Shown: one piece after another, positions 2,885-17,316 of the stretch | Position numbering within the stretch: position 1 is the first letter of the stretch | Layout: the number at the start of each line of letters is the position of its first letter | Notes under the pieces: generated by a model | What the model was told of the DNA's origin: nothing | Databases searched by the model: none | The model's input: only the letters and a program-made list of their open reading frames with translations | Source: a virus | Taxonomy: Duplodnaviria > Heunggongvirae > Uroviricota > Caudoviricetes | Reading direction: 5' to 3' (one strand) | IMG/VR virus record: IMGVR_UViG_3300029076_000068 | DNA length: 17,639 bases | Made by a program: the position numbers and the translations under genes

Positions 2885-3404
2885 TCAGCAACCCCGGTAT
2901 CAGTTCATCCAGCGCGGCTGCTTTGTTCATGGCTTTGATGATATCCCGTTTCAGGAAATCAACATGTCGGTTTTCCAGTTCCGGAAAACGCCGCTGCACC
3001 GACAGGGGGATCCCGTCGAGAATACTGGCAATTTCACCTGCGATCCGCGACAGCACGAAAGTACAGAATGCGGTTTCCACCACTTCAGCGGAGTCTCTGG
3101 CATTTTTCAGCTCCTGTGCGTCGGCCTGCGCACGCGTAAGTCGATGGCGTTCGTACTCAATAGTCCCTGGCTGGAGATCTGTCTCGCTGGCCTGCCGCAG
3201 TTCTTCAACTTCCCGGCGCAGCTTTTCGTTCTCAATTTCAGCATCCCTTTCGGCATACCATTTTATGACGGCGGCAGAATCATAAAGCACCTCATTACCC
3301 TTGCCACCGCCTCGCAGAACGGGCATTCCCTGTTCCTGCCAGTTCTGAATGGTACGGATACTCGCACCGAAAATGTCAGCCAGCTGCTTTTTGTTGACTT
3401 CCAT
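2859..3404 (-). CDS. Nu1: Terminase small subunit gpNu1
   Basis: 181 aa, MEVNKKQLADIFGASIRTIQNWQEQGMPV... (winged-HTH N-terminus); overlaps A start by 26 nt as in lambda. Confidence 0.95.
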
Positions 3405-3640
3405 TGTTCATTCCACGGACAAAAACAGAGAAAGGAAACGACAAAGGCCAAAAAGCCCGTTTTCAGCACCTGTCGTTTCCTTTCTTTTCAGGGGGTATTT
3501 TAAATAAAAACATTAAGTTACGACGAAGAAGAACGGAAACACCTTAAACCGGAAAATTTTCATAAATAGCGAAAACCCGCGAGGTCGCCGCCCCGTAACC
3601 TGTCGGATCGCCGGAAAGGACCCGAAAAATGATAATAATT
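3405..3640 (-). other. cos site (cosB with Nu1 R-sites, cosN, cosQ) of lambda type
   Basis: Reverse complement of 3541-3593 reads GGGCGGCGACCTCGCGGGTTTTCGCTATTTATGAAAATTTTCCGGTTTAAGG, the lambda left end as recalled. The 12-nt cohesive end GGGCGGCGACCT is at plus 3582-3593; 3594-3624 matches the lambda right end (..CGATCCGACAGGTTACG). Confidence 0.85.
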
Positions 3641-3792
3641 ATCATCTACATGTCACAACGTGCATCTACGCCATCAAACCACGTCAAATAATCAATTATG
3701 ACGCAGGTATCGTATTAATTGATCTGCATCAACTTAACGTAAAAACAACTTCAGACAATACAAATCAGCGACACTGAATACGGGACAACCTC

Positions 3793-4026
3793 ATGTCAAC
3801 GAAGAACAGAACCCGCAGAACAACAACCCGCAACATCCGCTTTCCTAACCAAATGATTGAACAAATTAACATCGCTCTTGATCAAAAAGGGTCCGGGAAT
3901 TTCTCAGCCTGGGTCATTGAAGCCTGCCGCCGGAGACTGTGCTCAGAAAAAAGAGTTTCTCCTGAAGCAAACAAAGAAAAGAGTGACATTACTGAATTGC
4001 TCAGAAAACAGGTCAGACCAGATTGA
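3793..4026 (+). CDS. ylcI: DUF3950 / YlcI-like small protein with predicted ribbon-helix-helix DNA-binding fold
   Basis: 77 aa; RNIRFPNQMIEQINIALDQKGSGNFSAWVIEACRRRL fits the RHH pattern (beta strand, helix, G-x-S turn, helix). Resembles the DLP12 ylcI product as recalled. Confidence 0.6.
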   Translation: MSTKNRTRRTTTRNIRFPNQMIEQINIALDQKGSGNFSAWVIEACRRRLCSEKRVSPEANKEKSDITELLRKQVRPD

Positions 4027-4068
4027 AGCAATTTAGATAATCGTGCAGACTACGCCCCCTCATATCAC

Positions 4069-4494
4069 ATGGAAGGTTTATCTATGGATCAGGTAGTCAT
4101 TTTTAAACAAATATTTGATAAAGTTCGAAACGATTTAAACTATCAATGGTTTTATTCTGAGCTAAAACGTCACAATGTCTCACATTACATTTACTATTTA
4201 GCCACAGAGAATGTTCATATTGTATTAAAAAATGATAATACAGTGTTATTAAAGGGCCTAAAAAACATTGTGTCTGTCAAATTTTCAAAGGATAGGCATC
4301 TTATAGAAACGACCTCTAATAAGCTGAAATCCAGAGAGATCACATTTCAGGAATACAGAAGAAACCTTGCTAAAGCAGGAGTTTTTCGGTGGGTTACAAA
4401 TATCCACGAACAAAAAAGATATTACTATACCTTTGATAATTCATTACTCTTTACTGAAAACATACAGAGCACATCACAAATGTTTCCACACTAA
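4069..4494 (+). CDS. ybcV: DUF1398 / YbcV-like protein (AT-rich moron)
   Basis: 141 aa, ...[45 protein letters not shown]...; resembles DLP12 YbcV as recalled. Alternative start at Met 6 (4084). Confidence 0.6.
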
Positions 4495-4988
4495 ACCATA
4501 ACGTCCGGTTTCTTCTACCCCTGCACCGGACTGGCTGACATGAAGAGCAACCCCGCGTTCAGTTGACGCGTTAATAACCCGGTGTGCATCGTTTTTGATT
4601 ATTCCCGCACACTCACGCAGAAGGAATTCCCCGTCGGGCTACGGTCATGGTTAATGCGGGAATACGGCGACGATACAGCGCATGATGTGTCAGGCTTGAA
4701 TACCTTTATCCGTTAAAAGGGATATCAGTTAAGTTATCCCGTGTAGGGTATAAGCCATTGTCGAGACCACTCATTGAATGGCCTCTGCAATAACCGATGT
4801 CTTTCCATCAGTCCGCCACCACAAAGAATCTTTTTTGCCTTAAGGCAGGAGCTTCATCTTTCAGTGGCTGCCAGTGTTATTTCCCCACTTACTGGCTTGG
4901 GTTGTTTCGTGGTACTGCCGTTAACTGGTGGCCCAGAATAAATTCCGGTTTCATTATCAAGCCCACCCGTAAATGGGCTTTGTAATGG

Positions 4989-7700: not shown

Positions 7701-8798
7701 ATGAAAAAATTAACAGTGGCAATTTCTGCTGTAGCTGCATCAGTACTGATGGCGATGTCTGCTCAGGCAGCTGAAATTTATAATAAAGACAGTAACAAGC
7801 TGGATCTGTACGGGAAAGTTAATGCTAAGCACTACTTCTCCTCTAATGATGCAGATGATGGTGATACTACTTATGCCCGTCTTGGCTTCAAAGGTGAAAC
7901 CCAAATCAACGATCAACTGACTGGTTTCGGTCAGTGGGAATATGAATTCAAAGGCAACCGCGCTGAATCTCAAGGTTCCTCCAAAGACAAAACCCGTCTT
8001 GCATTTGCAGGCCTGAAATTCGGTGACTACGGCTCAATCGATTACGGCCGTAACTACGGTGTAGCATACGACATCGGTGCGTGGACTGACGTTCTGCCAG
8101 AATTCGGTGGCGATACCTGGACCCAAACAGATGTGTTCATGACTGGTCGCACCACTGGTGTTGCAACCTATCGTAACAACGACTTCTTTGGTCTGGTTGA
8201 TGGTCTGAACTTTGCTGCTCAGTACCAAGGCAAAAACGATCGTAGCGATTTCGATAACTACACTGAAGGTAACGGTGATGGCTTCGGTTTCTCTGCTACC
8301 TATGAATACGAAGGATTCGGTATCGGTGCAACTTATGCGAAATCTGATCGTACCGACACTCAAGTTAATGCAGGGAAAGTTCTTCCTGAAGTATTTGCTT
8401 CCGGTAAAAATGCAGAAGTTTGGGCCGCAGGTCTGAAATATGACGCTAACAACATTTACCTGGCCACTACCTATTCTGAAACCCAGAATATGACTGTATT
8501 TGCTGATCACTTCGTTGCTAATAAAGCCCAAAACTTCGAAGCTGTTGCACAATATCAGTTCGATTTCGGTCTGCGTCCGTCCGTTGCTTACCTGCAATCT
8601 AAAGGTAAGGATCTTGGAGTATGGGGCGATCAGGACTTAGTCAAATATGTTGATGTAGGTGCAACCTATTACTTCAACAAAAATATGTCTACTTTCGTTG
8701 ATTACAAAATCAACCTGCTTGACAAAAATGACTTCACTAAAGCACTCGGTGTAAGCACTGATGACATCGTTGCTGTAGGTCTGGTTTACCAGTTCTAA
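7701..8798 (+). CDS. nmpC: OmpC-family general porin (NmpC/OmpD-like), intact, antisense to the late operon
   Basis: 365 aa; signal peptide [23 protein letters not shown] then [17 protein letters not shown]...; C-terminal ...VGLVYQF beta-barrel motif; SD AAGGG upstream. Confidence 0.9.
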
Positions 8799-9593: not shown

Positions 9594-9956
9594 TCATTCA
9601 TTCCCCATTTCGGTGATGGTCAGTTCCAGCCTCCCACCTTTGGTAACAGGCATCTTCACAACGCGGTAATCAACGACCTGAGCATCATCCAGCCAGAAAC
9701 CTGCTTTAGTGAGTGCGTCAAAAGCGGCTTTTTGCAGATTATCCAGGTCACGGCGACGGCGATCCGGCATGTGGCACTCAATGCGGATTTTCACAGGCAT
9801 AGCCAGGCCGATATCCAGCATTGCGTTTTTAATGATTCGGGCGACGTTATCGCGGTATGCCTGCCCCTCTGCGCTGATGTGCGTGCGCCCGCGATTATGG
9901 CGGTAATAGCGATTATTGCTCGGAGGCCAGGGTAATGTGATGCTGTAGGTATTCAC
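9594..9956 (-). CDS. rusA: Holliday junction resolvase RusA
   Basis: 120 aa, [38 protein letters not shown]...; GTG start at 9954-9956. Confidence 0.9.
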
Positions 9957-9959
9957 GCC

Positions 9960-10073
9960 TTAATAACCCCCTCTTTCAGCCAGATAGACGGCCTGCTGTG
10001 AAACTTCGCAGGCAGCGCCTAGTTTCTTTTGTGAACCAACGATATTGATCGCTGTTTTGATGGCTGGGTTCAT
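9960..10073 (-). pseudogene. Truncated Cro/YdaS-family HTH ORF (37 aa), divergent from cI
   Basis: Hand-translated: MNPAIKTAINIVGSQKKLGAACEVSQQAVYLAERGGY*; carries only the HTH segment. Its stop is in frame with, and one codon upstream of, the rusA GTG start. Confidence 0.45.
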
Positions 10074-10177
10074 AACAACCTCCGTGGTTAATTTGAATCA
10101 AGATTAAAACTATGGTTTTTTTTAGTCAACAACCATTTTCGTTTGATGAAATAAAACCTTGGTTGTACATTTGGACT
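10074..10177. promoter_or_regulatory. Divergent cI/cro-like promoter-operator region (oR-like)
   Basis: Inverted ACAACCA (10129-10135) / TGGTTGT (10160-10166) plus near-palindrome TTGAATCAA (10093-10101); lies between divergent repressor and cro-like starts. The same ACAACCA motif recurs at 12578-12584. Confidence 0.4.
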
Positions 10178-10867
10178 ATGAAAACAACACTCTCAGAAAG
10201 ACTTAAAGAAGCCAGATTAGCGCGAGGCCTTACACAAAAGGCGCTTGGGGATTTGGTCGGGGTTAGCCAAGCAGCTATTCAGAAAATCGAAACAGGGAAA
10301 GCTAACCAAACAACTAAAATCGTGGAGATCGCGAACGCTTTGGGTGTGCGCGCAGAATGGTTATCTTCTGGCGTTGGAAATATGTCAGACAGTACAGTGC
10401 AACCAATACAAACAACTGTCAGCCATTCCAAATACTTTAAGATTGACGTTCTTGATATCGAAGTGAGTGCCGGGCCGGGAGTCATCAACCGTGAGTTTGT
10501 AGAAGTTCTACGTTCGGTTGAGTATTCGTTTGACGATGCTCGTCACATGTTCGATGGCAGGAAGGCGGAAAATATCCGTATCATTAACGTACGCGGTGAC
10601 AGCATGTCAGGAACGATCGAACCAGGTGATCTGCTGTTCGTTGATATCACTGTTAAATCTTTCGACGGTGATGGTATCTATGCGTTTCTGTACGACGACA
10701 CAGCCCATGTAAAGCGCCTGCAAATGATGAAGGATAAACTGCTGGTTATCTCTGATAACAAGAGCTACTCACCGTGGGACCCAATCGAGAAAGACGAGAT
10801 GAACCGGGTATTCATCTTCGGGAAAGTCATCGGGAGCATGCCGCAGACGTATAGGAAGCATGGATAA
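10178..10867 (+). CDS. CI-type prophage repressor (HTH_XRE N-domain + LexA/S24 autopeptidase C-domain)
   Basis: MKTTLSERLKEARLARGLTQKALGDLVGVSQAAIQKIE (HTH); Ala-Gly cleavage site in EVSAGPGV; Ser nucleophile in VRGDSMSGTIEPGDLLFVD; Lys in HVKRL. The track ORF starts at 10112; an HTH at the N-terminus favours 10178. Confidence 0.85.
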   Translation: MKTTLSERLKEARLARGLTQKALGDLVGVSQAAIQKIETGKANQTTKIVEIANALGVRAEWLSSGVGNMSDSTVQPIQTTVSHSKYFKIDVLDIEVSAGPGVINREFVEVLRSVEYSFDDARHMFDGRKAENIRIINVRGDSMSGTIEPGDLLFVDITVKSFDGDGIYAFLYDDTAHVKRLQMMKDKLLVISDNKSYSPWDPIEKDEMNRVFIFGKVIGSMPQTYRKHG

Positions 10868-10962
10868 TTCGACATAAATTCAACAAGTTAACTTTGGCTT
10901 CAAAAAAGCATCGATAACATTGCATTATATTTTTCCTTTTGTCTAACTTAAAAGGATGAACA

Positions 10963-11688
10963 ATGGAAGAACGTGGGAATTACCTAATAGACCCCCTAGA
11001 AGTAATTGGTTCTGGCGGTTTTGGCCTTGTAGAAAAAATAAGGTTATATAACTCACAAAGAAAAATTTGTGGTCTATATGCCAGAAAAATTTTACGACCT
11101 GATGCAACAGATCCTGAACTCTTTACCAGATTTGAACGAGAAGTAAGATATCAAACTGAATGCCTGCATACTAATATTGTCCAAATATTCATATGCCACT
11201 TACAGAATGCTCAGCCTTGGTTCGTAATGGAACTAGCAGAAACAAATCTTGAAGAAGAAATAAAAAGTGGAACTCTTACAAAGGCTGAAAAAATCTCTAT
11301 TGTAAAAATGGTACTAAATGCCGTCGGATGGATTCATAAGAAAGGATATCTTCATCGGGATATAAAACCACTAAATGTACTAAAATTTAAAGATGGAATT
11401 TATAAGTTATCTGACTTCGGCCTTGCAAAAAATGTGTCACCAGATGCCAATACACAGCTATTAACACAAATTGGCCAATACCCCGCTACTCCTAAATACT
11501 TTGATTACAACGTTTTCCTCAACGGATATTCAAAACAATCAGATATATATTCAATTGGTATTTTAATTGAAGAATTAAATATTGATGGTTTTGATGATAT
11601 AATAAACAAATGTACGCATAGACAACTTAACAAAAGATTCCTGACCGTAGAGCAGATCTTTGAGGAATTGGAGTTGAAACGCTTATGA
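10963..11688 (+). CDS. Hanks-type (eukaryotic-like) Ser/Thr protein kinase, minimal kinase domain
   Basis: 241 aa; Gly-rich loop GSGGFGLV, Lys in LYARKIL, catalytic loop HRDIKPLN, DFG in LSDFGLAK, subdomain IX SDIYSIG. SD AAAGGA upstream. About 35-40% GC by eye. Confidence 0.85.
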   Translation: MEERGNYLIDPLEVIGSGGFGLVEKIRLYNSQRKICGLYARKILRPDATDPELFTRFEREVRYQTECLHTNIVQIFICHLQNAQPWFVMELAETNLEEEIKSGTLTKAEKISIVKMVLNAVGWIHKKGYLHRDIKPLNVLKFKDGIYKLSDFGLAKNVSPDANTQLLTQIGQYPATPKYFDYNVFLNGYSKQSDIYSIGILIEELNIDGFDDIINKCTHRQLNKRFLTVEQIFEELELKRL

Positions 11689-12428
11689 TTAGCATACTCT
11701 CATCATCCATATTTTCTGTACCAAAACATAATGGCAGGGAAAATCAAGATAGCGTGCTTTATCCACTTCAAACACCAAATGGTTATCTTATGGCTATAGC
11801 TGATGGGGTTGGTGGTTATAAAGGAGGAAAAGAAGCATCTGCAGCAGTAATAAATCATTTGTATAGTATTAAAGACAGCTTCACTCATGAAGACAATGTC
11901 TTATCCTTACTTAAGACCCTACAAGAAAAGGTGGCATCTCTTTCGTCAGTTGATAAAGAATTAGCATCTGCTGCTACAACTTTAACAATGTGCCTACTTC
12001 ACAATCAAGGTCTAACAATTATACATGTAGGTGACTGTCGTGTTTATTTAAAAAATGGAAATAAGCTAATCCAATTAACAACAGATCATACTCAACATCA
12101 AATGTTGATAGATAGCGGTATTTATACAGCTCGACAGCTCAAAAATGCAAAAGGTAAAAATATTATTACAACTGCACTTGCTGCCAAGATCCCTCTTCAA
12201 CATCAAGTCATAAATATTGATAAAGATGAACTTCCTCTTGACGATGGTGTTCTATCTCTATTCATCATGTCTGATGGCGCGCATACCTTTTGGGAGCAAC
12301 GCCCACGATTTTCTTACCGTACATTGTCAACCGCATCAAGGTTTGCCTCCAGCCTAATGCGAAGAATAGAGACAAAAGGCCCGACTGACGATTATTCTCT
12401 TATAGCGGTAAATGTAAAGTATTTGTAA
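11685..12428 (+). CDS. PP2C-family (PPM) Ser/Thr protein phosphatase
   Basis: 247 aa; metal-binding motif AIADGVGGYKGGKEAS, then HVGDCRVYL, TTDHT and C-terminal MSDGA. Start ATG overlaps the kinase stop (ATGA at 11685-11688). Confidence 0.85.
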   Translation: MISILSSSIFSVPKHNGRENQDSVLYPLQTPNGYLMAIADGVGGYKGGKEASAAVINHLYSIKDSFTHEDNVLSLLKTLQEKVASLSSVDKELASAATTLTMCLLHNQGLTIIHVGDCRVYLKNGNKLIQLTTDHTQHQMLIDSGIYTARQLKNAKGKNIITTALAAKIPLQHQVINIDKDELPLDDGVLSLFIMSDGAHTFWEQRPRFSYRTLSTASRFASSLMRRIETKGPTDDYSLIAVNVKYL

Positions 12429-12432
12429 ACTT

Positions 12433-12460
12433 CCCGGCCACCGTGCCGGGTTTTCTTTTA
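12433..12460 (+). terminator. Intrinsic terminator closing the cI-kinase-phosphatase unit
   Basis: Stem CCCGGC (12433-12438) / GCCGGG (12445-12450), loop CACCGT, followed by TTTTCTTTTA. Confidence 0.6.
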
Positions 12461-12574: not shown

Positions 12575-12640
12575 AAAACAACCAATAAAACAACTTTTGT
12601 TGTTGACGATAAAACAACTATAGTTTTAAATAAATTCATC
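12575..12640 (+). promoter_or_regulatory. pL/oL-like promoter-operator candidate
   Basis: -35 TTGACG (12603-12608), 17-nt spacer, -10-like TTAAAT (12626-12631). Overlaps palindrome ACAACTTTTGTTGT (12590-12603) and repeated ACAAC(CA) motifs shared with the oR-like region. Confidence 0.35.
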
Positions 12641-12824
12641 GCAACAACACAACGATACGGCAACCACCTGATTCACCGTTGCGATGACCGCTTAGATCCG
12701 CAGCTTGAATTTCAGCAGGCTTCGGGAAGTGCGAGGGGTGAAGCGGACGCGTGAACGTCGGTGTGACCAGCTGAAATCAACTCAACACTTCATACCTCAG
12801 TCGCTTCAACGAGGCGGCTTAGTT

Positions 12825-13115
12825 ATGACAACCGGCGGCCATCCACCGCCTGAATACGCGCAGAAGTCTTTATATGTTCAGCAGCCCAGCTTACGGGCAG
12901 GAGTTTTTATGGTTCATCAACATTACGGAACGCAGACCGTTAATCGCGGTGCGGTCATGCCAGGAATGCTGGTCAAACACAAAGATGGTACCTGGACTGC
13001 ATCAGCTAATTTATGCGGACGGCTATATCTGCATCGCGGCATCGAGCGCACTTATACCCGTGATTTGCTCGTGGAAGTTTTTCTCGACGGACGAGGCAAC
13101 GGCCTGAATCACTAA
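12825..13115 (+). CDS. Hypothetical protein (non-lambda segment upstream of gam)
   Basis: 96 aa from ATG 12825 (MTTGGHPPPEYAQKSLYVQQ...), with GAGG 10-13 nt upstream. The track ORF extends to a TTG at 12705. No family recognised. Confidence 0.35.
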   Translation: MTTGGHPPPEYAQKSLYVQQPSLRAGVFMVHQHYGTQTVNRGAVMPGMLVKHKDGTWTASANLCGRLYLHRGIERTYTRDLLVEVFLDGRGNGLNH

Positions 13116-15134: not shown

Positions 15135-15298
15135 GAACGAGCATTGAGATGGCACATAGCCTCGCTCAAATTGGAGTCAGGTTTGTGCCAATACCAGTAG
15201 AAACAGACGAAGAATTTCATACGTTAGCCACATCCCTTTCACAAAAACTGGAAATGATGGTGGCGAAAGCAGAAGCAGATGAAAGAGACCAGGTATGA
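15107..15298 (+). CDS. Lambda b-region small protein (orf63-like)
   Basis: 63 aa, [31 protein letters not shown]...; overlaps the preceding ORF by 28 nt. Confidence 0.6.
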   Translation: MHKASPVELRTSIEMAHSLAQIGVRFVPIPVETDEEFHTLATSLSQKLEMMVAKAEADERDQV

Positions 15299-15374
15299 CA
15301 ACCACTGAATGCATTTTTCTGGCAGCGGGCTTCATATTCTGTGTGCTTATGCTTGCCGACATGGGACTTGTTCA

Positions 15375-15596
15375 ATGACACCTCAGCAAGAAAACGCCCT
15401 TCGCAGTATTGCCCGTCAGGCTAATTCTGAAATCAAAAAAGCCAGACAGCAGTTTCCNNNNNNNNNNNNNNNNNNNNNNNNNNNNNNNNNNNNNNNNNNN
15501 NNNNNNNNNNNNNNNNNNNTAACGCTGATGGGATTCACACCGACTCATTTAAGCCTGGCGATCGGCATGTTAAACGGCGTCTTTAAGGAACGGTGA
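15375..15596 (+). CDS. Lambda b-region small protein (orf61-like), interrupted by an N run
   Basis: MTPQQENALRSIARQANSEIKKARQQF, then 62 N, then TLMGFTPTHLSLAIGMLNGVFKER*. Frame and length across the gap cannot be verified. Confidence 0.4.
   Translation: MTPQQENALRSIARQANSEIKKARQQFXXXXXXXXXXXXXXXXXXXXXXTLMGFTPTHLSLAIGMLNGVFKER
15458..15519. other. Run of 62 ambiguous bases (N): assembly gap or masked segment
   Basis: Directly visible in the sequence. Confidence 0.99.
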
Positions 15597-15694
15597 GCAT
15601 GAAAAACAATATCATCATGGAGCTACAGGCTCCTTTTTTATTATTCGCATTCACCCTCAAGCGTATTAACCAACAATTCAGGGATTAATGAAAG

Positions 15695-15916
15695 ATGGCA
15701 GACATCATTGATTCAGCATCAGAAATTGAAGAATTACAGCGCAACACAGCAATAAAAATGCGCCGCCTGAACCACCAGGCTATATCTGCCACTCATTGTT
15801 GTGAGTGTGGCGATCCGATAGATGAACGAAGACGCTTGGCCGTTCAGGGTTGTCGGACTTGTGCAAGTTGCCAGGAGGATCTGGAACTTATCAGTAAACA
15901 GAGAGGTTCGAAGTGA
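15695..15916 (+). CDS. TraR/DksA-family C4 zinc-finger protein (lambda Orf73-like)
   Basis: 73 aa; CCECGDPIDERRRLAVQGCRTCASCQ four-Cys zinc finger typical of TraR/DksA C-terminus. Confidence 0.8.
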   Translation: MADIIDSASEIEELQRNTAIKMRRLNHQAISATHCCECGDPIDERRRLAVQGCRTCASCQEDLELISKQRGSK

Positions 15917-16126
15917 GCGAAATTAACTAGAAGCCAAAGATAAAATCATCGCTGAGCAGGAGAAAATCGCTAACGGAGAAAAGACAGTAAGTCAGTATAT
16001 GAAAACCGCATGATATCATCAGATAAAAATCGATCGTAAAGCGAAATATTAATACCAGAATAAACGAGTCGAGGTAAATTATATTACCTCGATAAATTAA
16101 CTAAAACTTGCCCGCTATATACTATC

Positions 16127-16729
16127 TCATTCAGTATCATCACGCGCGGTCTGTGTATATGTTACTACCGCACCTAATGTATTAATTTTCTTTTCAACAT
16201 AGATAATATTATCGTACTCATAATTGCCATACGGATAGCAAATGCGAATATTCTCATGTAGATCGGGGTCATCCACCTCAGCTCCAGAACAACTTTTTGA
16301 ACTACCGGAAGTATACCGATACGGTGCAACATAAGACGATGTCTCTCCAGGCAAAAAATAAGTTAGTGTTGTAAGGGGTATAATCAGAAAAAATCCAGCA
16401 AATATGCACATTCCTGCATAAACCTTAAGGTATGCTGACAGACTCTTCCAGCCGCTTTGTTTTACTATCCCCTTCTTAACCCAAAACAGAGATAACAGAA
16501 AAGCTATTCCCATGCTAAACAGAATGTAATAGTGGGATATACTCTGATTAAGAAACGTGACCCTGTAAATATCTGCCCGCCACCAGAAGAAAAGGAAAAT
16601 AAAGATCAGGCCTGAAACTGTCATGCAAATCAAATAAGGATACGAATCTTTTTTCATGTTTAGCGCCCATAAAATTTTTCCTGCCCCGGACAAATTTACC
16701 ATCCATTTTCTGCGCAGAAAATAGCTCAT
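16127..16729 (-). CDS. Hypothetical integral membrane protein (AT-rich moron)
   Basis: 200 aa; three to four hydrophobic helices (YLICMTVSGLIFIFLFFWW, YYILFSMGIAFLLSLFWV, VYAGMCIFAGFFLIIPLTTLTYFL) plus a ~80-aa Cys/Tyr-containing soluble C-terminus. Start ambiguous among Met1, Met10 and Met25. Confidence 0.55.
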   Translation of the reverse strand: MSYFLRRKWMVNLSGAGKILWALNMKKDSYPYLICMTVSGLIFIFLFFWWRADIYRVTFLNQSISHYYILFSMGIAFLLSLFWVKKGIVKQSGWKSLSAYLKVYAGMCIFAGFFLIIPLTTLTYFLPGETSSYVAPYRYTSGSSKSCSGAEVDDPDLHENIRICYPYGNYEYDNIIYVEKKINTLGAVVTYTQTARDDTE

Positions 16730-16971
16730 TACTTACTGCACAATAATACACAAAATTGCGTAAATTTTTTGCATGGATTTTAGCTCTTTCAGCCGACGTT
16801 TAAGGGGTAAATAGCATTTCCTAAAAGCAACTGCACCAACCCAACAGAATGAACTACCGCTTACGTTGAGAGCAAAAAAGTGTATAGCAGCAATGAACAG
16901 CATCCTCGCACTGACGGGGATTTCTTTTATCTGAGCTAGCTACGGCGAGTTTTGTTTTATGGAGACAAGAA

Positions 16972-17316
16972 ATGTCAGATTTGGCTATGAAGGTTTTGAA
17001 ATGGCAATCAACTGGCGATGTCGGCATCAGTAGCGCAACTCTTGCCTCAATCGCATGTGGCCTGAAAAAGAATATCTATGGTCATCACTTCGGCGCTCCC
17101 CATGACGCAGCAGACTTTCGGCGATGCGTTGCACTTGTTGAGCAGATTCCAGAAATCAGAGATTCATTCAACAAGGTTGCAAAGCGCGTTCCGGCATTCA
17201 AAGGAATCCTCAACGAATGGGATTCACTCGTTGCTCTGTTGAAGTCTGAAATGAAGACGTACGGGAACAAAGCACCAGAGACTTACAGAAGAATCAGCGA
17301 GCTACGCAAGGACTAA
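16972..17316 (+). CDS. Hypothetical protein
   Basis: 114 aa ORF with a good SD (GGAGACAAGAA-ATG); no family recognised. Confidence 0.5.
   Translation: MSDLAMKVLKWQSTGDVGISSATLASIACGLKKNIYGHHFGAPHDAADFRRCVALVEQIPEIRDSFNKVAKRVPAFKGILNEWDSLVALLKSEMKTYGNKAPETYRRISELRKD

Follow-up and report, generated by a model that had tools for sequence, protein, structure and literature searches.

Gene content of the locus

The virus record IMGVR_UViG_3300029076_000068 (Duplodnaviria; Heunggongvirae; Uroviricota; Caudoviricetes) comprises 17,639 nucleotides (nt), a stretch referred to below as the window. It represents a defective prophage of the lambda/DLP12 type from Escherichia coli. On the plus strand, a cI-type repressor gene is followed by two open reading frames (ORFs) for proteins of 241 and 247 amino acids (aa) and by the genes kil (12909-13115), gam, bet and exo. 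Leftward on the minus strand are located rusA, a Q-family antiterminator gene, the lysis genes and the terminase genes. The annotation of a 100%-identical locus, L001, was used for the backbone genes. The two ORFs behind the repressor gene encode a Hanks-type Ser/Thr kinase and a PP2C phosphatase, here called the KP pair. An initial annotation, made from the nucleotide sequence and the translated ORFs, had proposed the pair as an exclusion or abortive-infection cassette of the lysogen.

The kinase and the phosphatase

The kinase gene (10963-11688, plus strand) codes for a minimal Ser/Thr kinase of 241 aa that belongs to the RD type and lacks the alphaG segment. The Pfam families Pkinase (E-value, E, 3.2e-32) and PK_Tyr_Ser-Thr match the protein, besides one chance match below threshold. 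Its translation contains GSGGFGLV, ARK, HRDIKPLN and DFG. The catalytic loop HRDIKPLN is that of a Ser/Thr kinase of the RD type, and RD kinases are usually activated by phosphorylation of the activation loop. An alignment of 35 family members revealed as invariant residues G18, G21, K42, E60, H131-R132-D133, K135, N138, D151-F152-G153, D194 and R225; in the glycine loop, G16 is shared by at least 90% of them. All hallmarks of the Hanks type are present, i.e. the glycine loop, the VAIK-type Lys, the alphaC Glu, HRDxKxxN, DFG, the subdomain IX Asp and the subdomain XI Arg. Thr168 and Thr176, located in the flexible activation loop, are nearly invariant in the kinase family.

The AlphaFold2 (AF2) model of the kinase has a mean predicted local distance difference test score (pLDDT) of 90 and a predicted template modeling score (pTM) of 0.88. 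Low confidence is confined to residues ~160-180, the activation loop. The first beta strands open the fold at residues 2-7, ahead of the glycine loop at residues 16-21. Foldseek aligned the model to PknB, FGFR2 and Lyn with template modeling scores (TM, query) of 0.76-0.83, in agreement with a bilobal kinase fold; numerous eukaryotic kinases align at a TM of ~0.8. The alignment to the StkP structure skips from query residue 205 (chain residue 227) to query residue 209 (chain residue 264), and the model shows just two short helices beyond alphaF. Therefore, alphaG/subdomain X is considered missing. The ~33 residues, situated between alphaF and alphaH in StkP, are absent family-wide, with protein lengths of 241-282 aa. 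By profile, alignment and predicted fold, the kinase is catalytically intact.

The phosphatase gene (11685-12428, plus strand) codes for a PP2C (PPM) Ser/Thr phosphatase of 247 aa, which matches PP2C_2 with an E of 4.8e-12. The NCBIfam model Stp1_PP2C is matched with an E of 1.2e-31 and 110 bits, under its cutoff of 230 bits. DGVGG, GDCR and SDG occur in the translation. Residues D22, D40-G41-x-G43, G116-D117-x-R119, S196-D197-G198 and D235-D236 do not vary among 12 sequences taken from the loci and 39 from databases. The acidic metal-binding motifs of the PPM family are complete, comprising RxxxxD, DGxGG, GDxR, SDG and the terminal DD/DN. The AF2 model is compact and confident (pLDDT 91), and the fold starts at residue 2. 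Its beta-sandwich was recovered by Foldseek with PstP, Stp1 and tPphA (E 2e-15 to 1e-13, TM 0.72-0.83). By the same three lines of evidence, the phosphatase is catalytically intact as well.

The start codon of the phosphatase gene overlaps the kinase stop codon in ATGA (11685-11688), and translation of the two genes is coupled. All motifs quoted in the initial annotation for both ORFs are thus found in the translations, and the overlap can be read in the DNA. The profile and structure searches, suggested there as a check, recovered both folds.

The repressor-to-terminator unit

The repressor gene (10178-10867, plus strand) encodes a protein with an HTH_3 domain (Pfam, E 6.5e-13) and a Peptidase_S24 domain (E 1.5e-18). 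L001 lists it as an S24 family peptidase with a length of 229 aa. The ORF begins at 10112, and the start equivalent to that in RefSeq is window position 10178. The latter is probably the true start, and 10112 is unlikely because it would place the operators within the gene. An oR-like operator region with the pRM/pR area (10104-10147, no strand assigned) lies between the truncated cro gene and cI. It shows inverted matches to the oL sequence at 12585-12629, with 73-89% complementarity. The oL/pL-like region (12585-12640, plus strand) contains TTGACG and TTAAAT at a distance of 17 nt, AACAAC/GTTGTT palindromes and a direct repeat, D8, in addition to the inverted matches. It is located upstream of kil-gam-bet-exo, which it is taken to drive. 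Both regions look as expected for oL and oR of a single immunity region. No N gene was found between the pL-like promoter and kil (12640-12909), where a leader of 270 nt is situated. An Rfam search of the whole window, this leader included, yielded zero RNA families.

A Shine-Dalgarno-like AAGGA (10952-10956, plus strand) was read in the sequence 6 nt upstream of the kinase ATG. Between cI and the kinase gene, neither a terminator nor a consensus promoter on the plus strand was detected, the latter in a simple promoter scan that provides weak evidence. An intrinsic terminator (12433-12460, plus strand) follows 5 bases past the PP2C stop codon. It consists of an all-GC stem of 6 bp, CCCGGC/GCCGGG at 12433-12450, and a T-run, TTTTCTTTT.

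Transcripts from pRM carry exclusion genes in lambdoid phages, e.g. rexAB in lambda, hex in 434 and stk in 933W. The cargo in the window is bounded by the cI stop codon on one side and a conserved terminator on the other. The simplest reading is therefore a pRM read-through that should yield cI together with both cargo genes in lysogens; the co-transcription is inferred. The missing plus-strand promoter fits this reading weakly. As part of the unit from cI to the terminator, the cassette is expected to be made in lysogens.

An exchangeable cargo slot

The foreign segment comprises a leader, the kinase gene and the PP2C gene (10868-12432, plus strand) and was delimited by blastn breakpoints and GC content. 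In comparison with the sister phages L002, L003 and L104, homology is lost at the stop codon of cI (10866/10867) and returns where the terminator stem begins (12432/12433). The GC content of the cargo is 35.3%, with 25% at third codon positions (GC3), versus 46.6% in cI and 51.8% from kil to exo (GC3 50-60%). We regard the cassette as foreign cargo, a moron.

Other phages carry different genes at the same breakpoints. PhiR47_2 has GevT/GevA, of which GevA is an ASCH protein. PhiR5_1 harbors a HipA_2 kinase and a DUF3037 protein, designated 'HipA/HipD', and PhiR34_1 contains ~121 nt only. Hundreds of E. coli genomes possess the same cI and flanks with other cargo, namely hypothetical, ASCH, LAPAL and DUF4411 proteins. 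The terminator hairpin is identical 3' of other cargo in L002 and L003. A near-identical hairpin (L097, 8484-8501) is located 3' of a 58%-identical pair in a Rac-like prophage. The terminator is assigned to the phage backbone because sister phages share the cargo breakpoint at the start of the stem, and the cargo appears to have been placed upstream of it.

By position and content, we consider the slot equivalent to the accessory slot of rexAB and stk, with toxin-antitoxin-like or defense-like cargo in sister phages. HipA_2 combined with DUF3037 is also how DS-6 is built, a system with experimentally demonstrated protection against phage. A diverged copy of the kinase-PP2C pair was considered for 'HipA/HipD' of PhiR5_1 and ruled out, as the comparison gave E 0.39 and 0.28. 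Among the papers searched, none names GevT/GevA and HipD in PhiR phages.

The initial annotation had located the cassette in the rexAB-equivalent position before a terminator and a pL/oL-like region, and had named this as the position of stk in phage 933W. The hairpin with T-run, the inverted matches to oR and the position of stk downstream of cI in 933W-type phages bear this out. Its description as AT-rich compared with cI and the red genes agrees with the GC contents above. The proposed horizontal acquisition as a moron is substantiated by the exact breakpoints together with the low GC.

As a separate observation, the cI stop codon and the hairpin CCCGGCCACCGTGCCGGG serve as exact, reused breakpoints for the KP pair, for GevT/GevA, for HipA_2 with DUF3037 and for the near-empty slot. 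The hairpin may act as a recombination anchor in the exchange of cargo.

Distribution of the family

A protein search with the kinase returned ~58 clusters of 241-282 aa with scores from 541 down to 175 bits, followed after a steep fall by generic kinases at 115 bits or below. In the PP2C search, clusters of 242-256 aa that scored above 224 bits numbered more than 120. In a profile search against 1.84 billion representatives, roughly 20 clusters at the 50% identity level scored above 200 bits. According to source names and record titles, almost all members originate from gamma-proteobacteria. The genera are Escherichia, Yersinia, Klebsiella, Raoultella, Rahnella, Pantoea, Serratia, Pectobacterium, Xenorhabdus, Photorhabdus, Cronobacter, Acinetobacter, Pseudomonas and Xanthomonas.

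Loci were gathered by exact-protein look-ups. A contig scan with the kinase alignment, using generic HRD and DFG peptides, detected mostly ordinary Hanks kinases; family members were obtained only in L007 (Raoultella) and L008 (Pseudomonas koreensis). The kinase gene directly precedes the PP2C gene in all 14 loci examined. Annotated genes are available for 12 of these, and there the two genes overlap by 1-13 nt or are separated by at most 2 nt. For L007 and L008, which were located by tblastn only, the starts of the kinase and PP2C matches are ~24-26 nt apart. The identities to the kinase and the PP2C of the window co-vary, with values of 63/59, 60/56, 58/57, 57/48, 48/43, 44/47, 40/46 and so on. 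Kinase and PP2C are passed on and diverge together, and the pair forms a discrete, mobile and co-evolving family.

The slot between cI and the terminator carries the pair in 15 of 5,426 complete E. coli genomes. The cI of the window is present in 13 of the 15, and the other two have a repressor differing in its N-terminal half. In Rac-like prophages, the 58%-identical pair is situated directly 3' of an unrelated HTH repressor of 128 aa and is followed by the hairpin CCCGGnCAnCGnGCCGGG; this allele had zero matches in the complete E. coli genomes. In Cronobacter phage phiES15, Q and a pR'/tR'-like site precede the pair and the lysis genes follow it; this is the stx-equivalent slot. In Escherichia phage Flotzy, the pair is located between the spanin gene, after Rz, and the small terminase gene. 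Since these two phages have the pair in late-gene slots, repressor-linked expression is not universal for the family. Rahnella carries it at a prophage end past the tail-fiber genes, Klebsiella in a P4-like satellite. A Yersinia island contains the pair beside a ThsB-like TIR protein and a STAND NTPase in one strain and beside PDC-M38A/B (AbiLi/AriA-like) in another.

Frameshifts have been found in three loci. Two assemblies (L106 and L107, 3001-3609) have a frameshifted kinase gene and an intact PP2C gene. Both genes are broken in a long-read assembly (L108, 3001-4579), where a sequencing error is possible. The natural kinase frameshifts break the protein past residue 170-171, in the activation loop. 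An intact kinase gene with a broken PP2C gene was not seen among the loci examined. This asymmetry fits a toxin/antitoxin logic weakly.

Two side observations concern individual members. The PP2C proteins P0123 (Yersinia enterocolitica, 366 aa) and P0253 (371 aa) are ~120 residues longer than the others, and the N-terminal extension of P0123 has a weak EAD1-like match (E 1.6e-4). They may be fused or sensor-bearing PP2C variants. In two Y. enterocolitica strains (L087 and L088, 9051-11602), the gene pair beside the KP cassette is swapped, which marks a hotspot of defense-gene swapping. A Deam_C/DUF6911 pair and a giant LPD/MuF protein are encoded close by.

Relation to known systems

The closest system in logic is the kinase-kinase-phosphatase module (KKP, PfpC-PfkB-PfkA) of Pf6, P2, P4 and Mu-like prophages (Guo et al., 2024, PMC11341870). 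It consists of a PP2C gene followed by two kinase genes. Both kinases are needed, and the FHA domain of the PfkB-like and the C-terminal cold-shock domain (CSD) of the PfkA-like kinase are essential. The two kinases are jointly toxic and are neutralized by the catalytic activity of PfpC. KKP protects E. coli from T4 and T-odd phages, and T4 Gp59 binds and partly inhibits PfpC. The module also controls Pf lysogeny by phosphorylating MvaU (PMC11341870).

The KP pair shares with KKP a Hanks-type Ser/Thr kinase with HRD and DFG and a PP2C, borne on a prophage or mobile element. It differs in having one bare kinase of 241 aa and one bare PP2C of 247 aa, with the kinase gene first and with cI and kil as flanks, whereas the phosphatase of PfpC is the N-terminal domain of a larger protein. 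Pfam revealed no CSD or FHA match in the kinase, and the family lengths are 241-282 aa. Membership in KKP was rejected on architecture and domains, namely a single kinase, the reverse gene order and no FHA or CSD.

Stk of the Stx phages 933W and phi24B resembles the kinase of the window in position, as it is a eukaryotic-like kinase encoded downstream of cI, before the terminator and pL. In 933W, stk is co-transcribed with cI and the kinase aborts superinfecting HK97. In contrast, Stk has 348 aa with a C-terminal extension, belongs to the non-RD type (HFD instead of HRD) and lacks a phosphatase partner; genes for DUF3024 and a resolvase precede it. Orthology was rejected on 26% identity over 218 residues, the HFD motif and the length of 348 versus 241 aa. 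With rexAB of lambda, the KP pair has in common the genomic position and the presumed co-expression from pRM, a positional relation only. HipA_2 with DUF3037 and GevT/GevA occupy the same slot with identical breakpoints, and HipA/HipD is without sequence similarity to the KP pair.

The PADLOC models mad6, PD-T4-6 (E 1.5e-34) and Stk2 (E 1.9e-27) match the kinase. PD-T4-6 from E. coli UMB0949 and the staphylococcal Stk2 share the kinase domain, but are single proteins with extra domains and without a PP2C partner. PD-T4-6, which was cloned alone, is one ORF of 436 aa, and residues 9-284 form its kinase. Membership in PD-T4-6 was rejected, as the PADLOC match covers model positions 15-205 of 327 (~190), the kinase core only. 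The PP2C matches only the candidate model PDC-M21C in PADLOC 2.0 (E 8e-9). In PHROGs, the kinase belongs to phrog_2361 ('serine-threonine kinase') and the PP2C to phrog_5650, which has no annotated function; neither bears a defense label.

Stk1/Stp1 of Gram-positive bacteria, with the counterparts PknB/PstP and PrkC/PrpC, combine the two enzyme families found in the KP pair and provide the best structural matches to it. The Stp1-type phosphatase reverses the autophosphorylation of the kinase. Encoded in the chromosomal core, Stk1-type kinases are membrane-bound and possess PASTA sensor domains. The Pfam scan of the 241-aa kinase turned up no PASTA match, though no search aimed at PASTA domains or a membrane anchor was made. 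The PP2C coordinates precede those of the kinase in the Firmicute records matched, the reverse of the order in the window. Equivalog membership was rejected with 105 bits for PknB_PASTA_kin (cutoff 450) and 110 bits for Stp1_PP2C (cutoff 230).

The KP pair is a distinct and simpler architecture, resembling KKP in logic and Stk in position. Among the papers searched, none deals with a two-gene kinase-PP2C defense. The two-gene layout had been described initially as unnamed. This agrees with PADLOC, which matches the kinase domain and gives a weak match for the PP2C, but the closest precedent, KKP, had been missed. Because KKP exists, the idea is less novel than implied.

State of the prophage and further genes of the window

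Compared with strain TB06053 (L001, 7899-13084), the window lacks 5,186 bp, and the deletion junction falls at 9984-9986. The lost segment extends from within cro, which misses its C-terminal half, through ydaT/cII, O, P, ren and the nin genes to rusA. A cro/ydaS remnant of 37 aa is fused to the rusA start (9956-10073). The junction was found in no complete E. coli genome of the collection. Since cro and the replication genes are lost, the window prophage is presumably unable to replicate or to switch to lytic growth. The cassette would be a fixed, repressor-linked asset of the host. Its intact state in a prophage without cro and replication genes fits a retention for a host-beneficial function.

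Further AT-rich regions were noted in the window. A patch at 3400-4600 (GC 0.34-0.42), between the terminase and lysis genes, contains a DUF1398 gene on the opposite strand (ORF 4069-4494, plus strand) and looks like another moron. The right end, 15200-17000 (GC 0.37-0.43), holds three ORFs without Pfam matches (15309-15596, plus; 16127-16729, minus; 16972-17316, plus). A full-length Porin_1 gene (7701-8798, plus strand), OmpC/NmpC-like with an E of 1e-156, adjoins the Q antiterminator gene, runs opposite to the late genes and is preceded by a very AT-rich region (GC 0.32-0.34).

Proposed function and alternative explanations

The cassette may be a two-gene phosphorylation switch, expressed in the lysogen and acting in abortive infection or exclusion. 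Argued by analogy, this function is given even odds. Such a switch would most likely be a minimal relative of the known kinase-based anti-phage systems. The RD-type kinase would turn itself on by autophosphorylation of its activation loop, with Thr168 and Thr176 as residues in this loop. In its active state, it would phosphorylate host or phage proteins required for growth or phage development. The PP2C, made together with the kinase, would constantly remove the phosphates and leave the uninfected lysogen unharmed. This logic would correspond to an enzymatic toxin/antitoxin of the type VII kind. An infecting phage could tip the balance, either by blocking the PP2C, comparable to T4 Gp59 on PfpC, or by activating the kinase, comparable to HK97 on 933W Stk. 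The cell would cease to grow, the phage with it, and the infection would be aborted.

Several observations speak for defense. A slot-mate consists of HipA_2 and DUF3037, the Yersinia neighbors are TIR/STAND or PDC-M38A/B proteins, one copy resides in a P4-like satellite and the Rac-like copy is also linked to a repressor. The matches of the kinase to mad6, PD-T4-6 and Stk2 and the precedent of KKP point the same way. The exclusion module of the initial annotation has gained from the intact enzymes, the foreign nature of the cargo, the unit from cI to the terminator and the defense-type neighbors; the linkage to a repressor did not hold family-wide.

Other observations weigh against a defense function. 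The anti-phage role and the restraint of the kinase by the PP2C are drawn by analogy. Toxicity of the kinase and antagonism by the PP2C are assumed from KKP, whose two kinases need FHA and CSD domains that are absent here. PADLOC 2.0 calls no complete system, and the PP2C matches a candidate model only. Some copies reside in plain chromosomal islets with neither mobile nor defense neighbors. The asymmetry of the frameshifts comprises three loci only, one of them maybe an assembly error. The placement in the late regions of phiES15 and Flotzy is the main observation that defense explains poorly, as these copies are maybe expressed late in lytic growth and not in lysogens.

This late placement, in the stx-equivalent slot of phiES15 and after Rz in Flotzy, would be expected of a moron for host physiology or lytic takeover. 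Its kinase would reprogram the host, by a shut-off like that of T7 gp0.7, by stress tolerance or by virulence, and the PP2C would limit the damage. The PHROGs families without defense label are in line with such a role. It is considered rather unlikely, as the pair belongs to a lysogenic transcription unit in the window and in the Rac-like prophages and has copies in non-phage defense islands. A regulator of lysogeny or induction is an unlikely explanation as well, though the first to be considered among the alternatives. The balance of kinase and PP2C would set the phosphorylation of a nucleoid protein, of RecA/LexA or of the repressor, and thereby tune silencing or induction. The control of Pf lysogeny by KKP via MvaU is a precedent, and two unrelated immunity regions have the pair immediately after the repressor gene. 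However, it also occurs remote from repressors, in late-gene slots, the P4-like satellite, the defense island and plain chromosome. With the deletion spanning cro to the nin genes, the window prophage is presumably not productively inducible, but the kinase and PP2C genes have both stayed intact. KKP unites defense and lysogeny roles, so that this alternative is compatible with defense.

A selfish addiction module of the toxin-antitoxin kind, stabilizing its mobile element without a specific anti-phage role, could account for a tightly coupled enzyme pair that is spread over many mobile elements, and for the frameshifted kinase beside an intact PP2C. Post-segregational killing needs an unstable antitoxin, however, and nothing suggests lability in the compact, confident model of the PP2C. 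Integrated prophages and chromosomal islets profit little from a plasmid-style addiction, and the neighbors and slot-mates are of the defense type. We hold addiction to be improbable. A secreted effector kinase that targets host cells, of the NleH/OspG kind, is highly improbable. The kinase is unusually small, as are the minimal kinases among effectors, and the NCBIfam model LegK1 is weakly matched (E 5e-8, far under cutoff). An N-terminal secretion signal, named with the initial annotation as evidence that would contradict exclusion, is missing. The folds begin at residues 2-7 in the kinase and at residue 2 in the PP2C and leave no space for a secretion or chaperone-binding segment. A cytoplasmic phosphatase partner is always present, and the contexts in Klebsiella, Acinetobacter, Rahnella and Xanthomonas have no linkage to secretion systems, bar one coincidental neighbor of the type VI secretion system. 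An NleH/OspG-like type III effector was rejected, as no N-terminal region precedes the kinase core.

Defense by a phosphatase-gated kinase remains the preferred reading. The KP pair is a clean, minimal candidate, for which we infer a defense role with better support than at first. A wider claim is tentative and judged doubtful: the KP pair would be the founding example of a minimal, self-contained two-gene phosphorylation switch of immunity, in which a kinase without alphaG is held off by the PP2C and released by a phage protein. Such a module would be portable among the repressor operon, late-gene moron slots, P4-like satellites and chromosomal defense islands. Its repressor-linked version might feed back on lysogeny.

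Implications

Kinase-based phage defense is known from few systems, i.e. 933W Stk, Stk2, PD-T4-6 and KKP, and little is understood of how they sense infection. Reduced to two proteins with bare catalytic domains, such a system would offer the simplest tractable model of a phosphatase-gated kinase that senses phage. Such a model could reveal which phosphorylations halt the infection. If the wider claim is true, the FHA and CSD domains of KKP would be dispensable for kinase-based immunity. In DLP12/lambda-like prophages, the cI stop codon and the conserved hairpin delimit a slot for swapping cargo, which could be mined for further functions expressed in lysogens.

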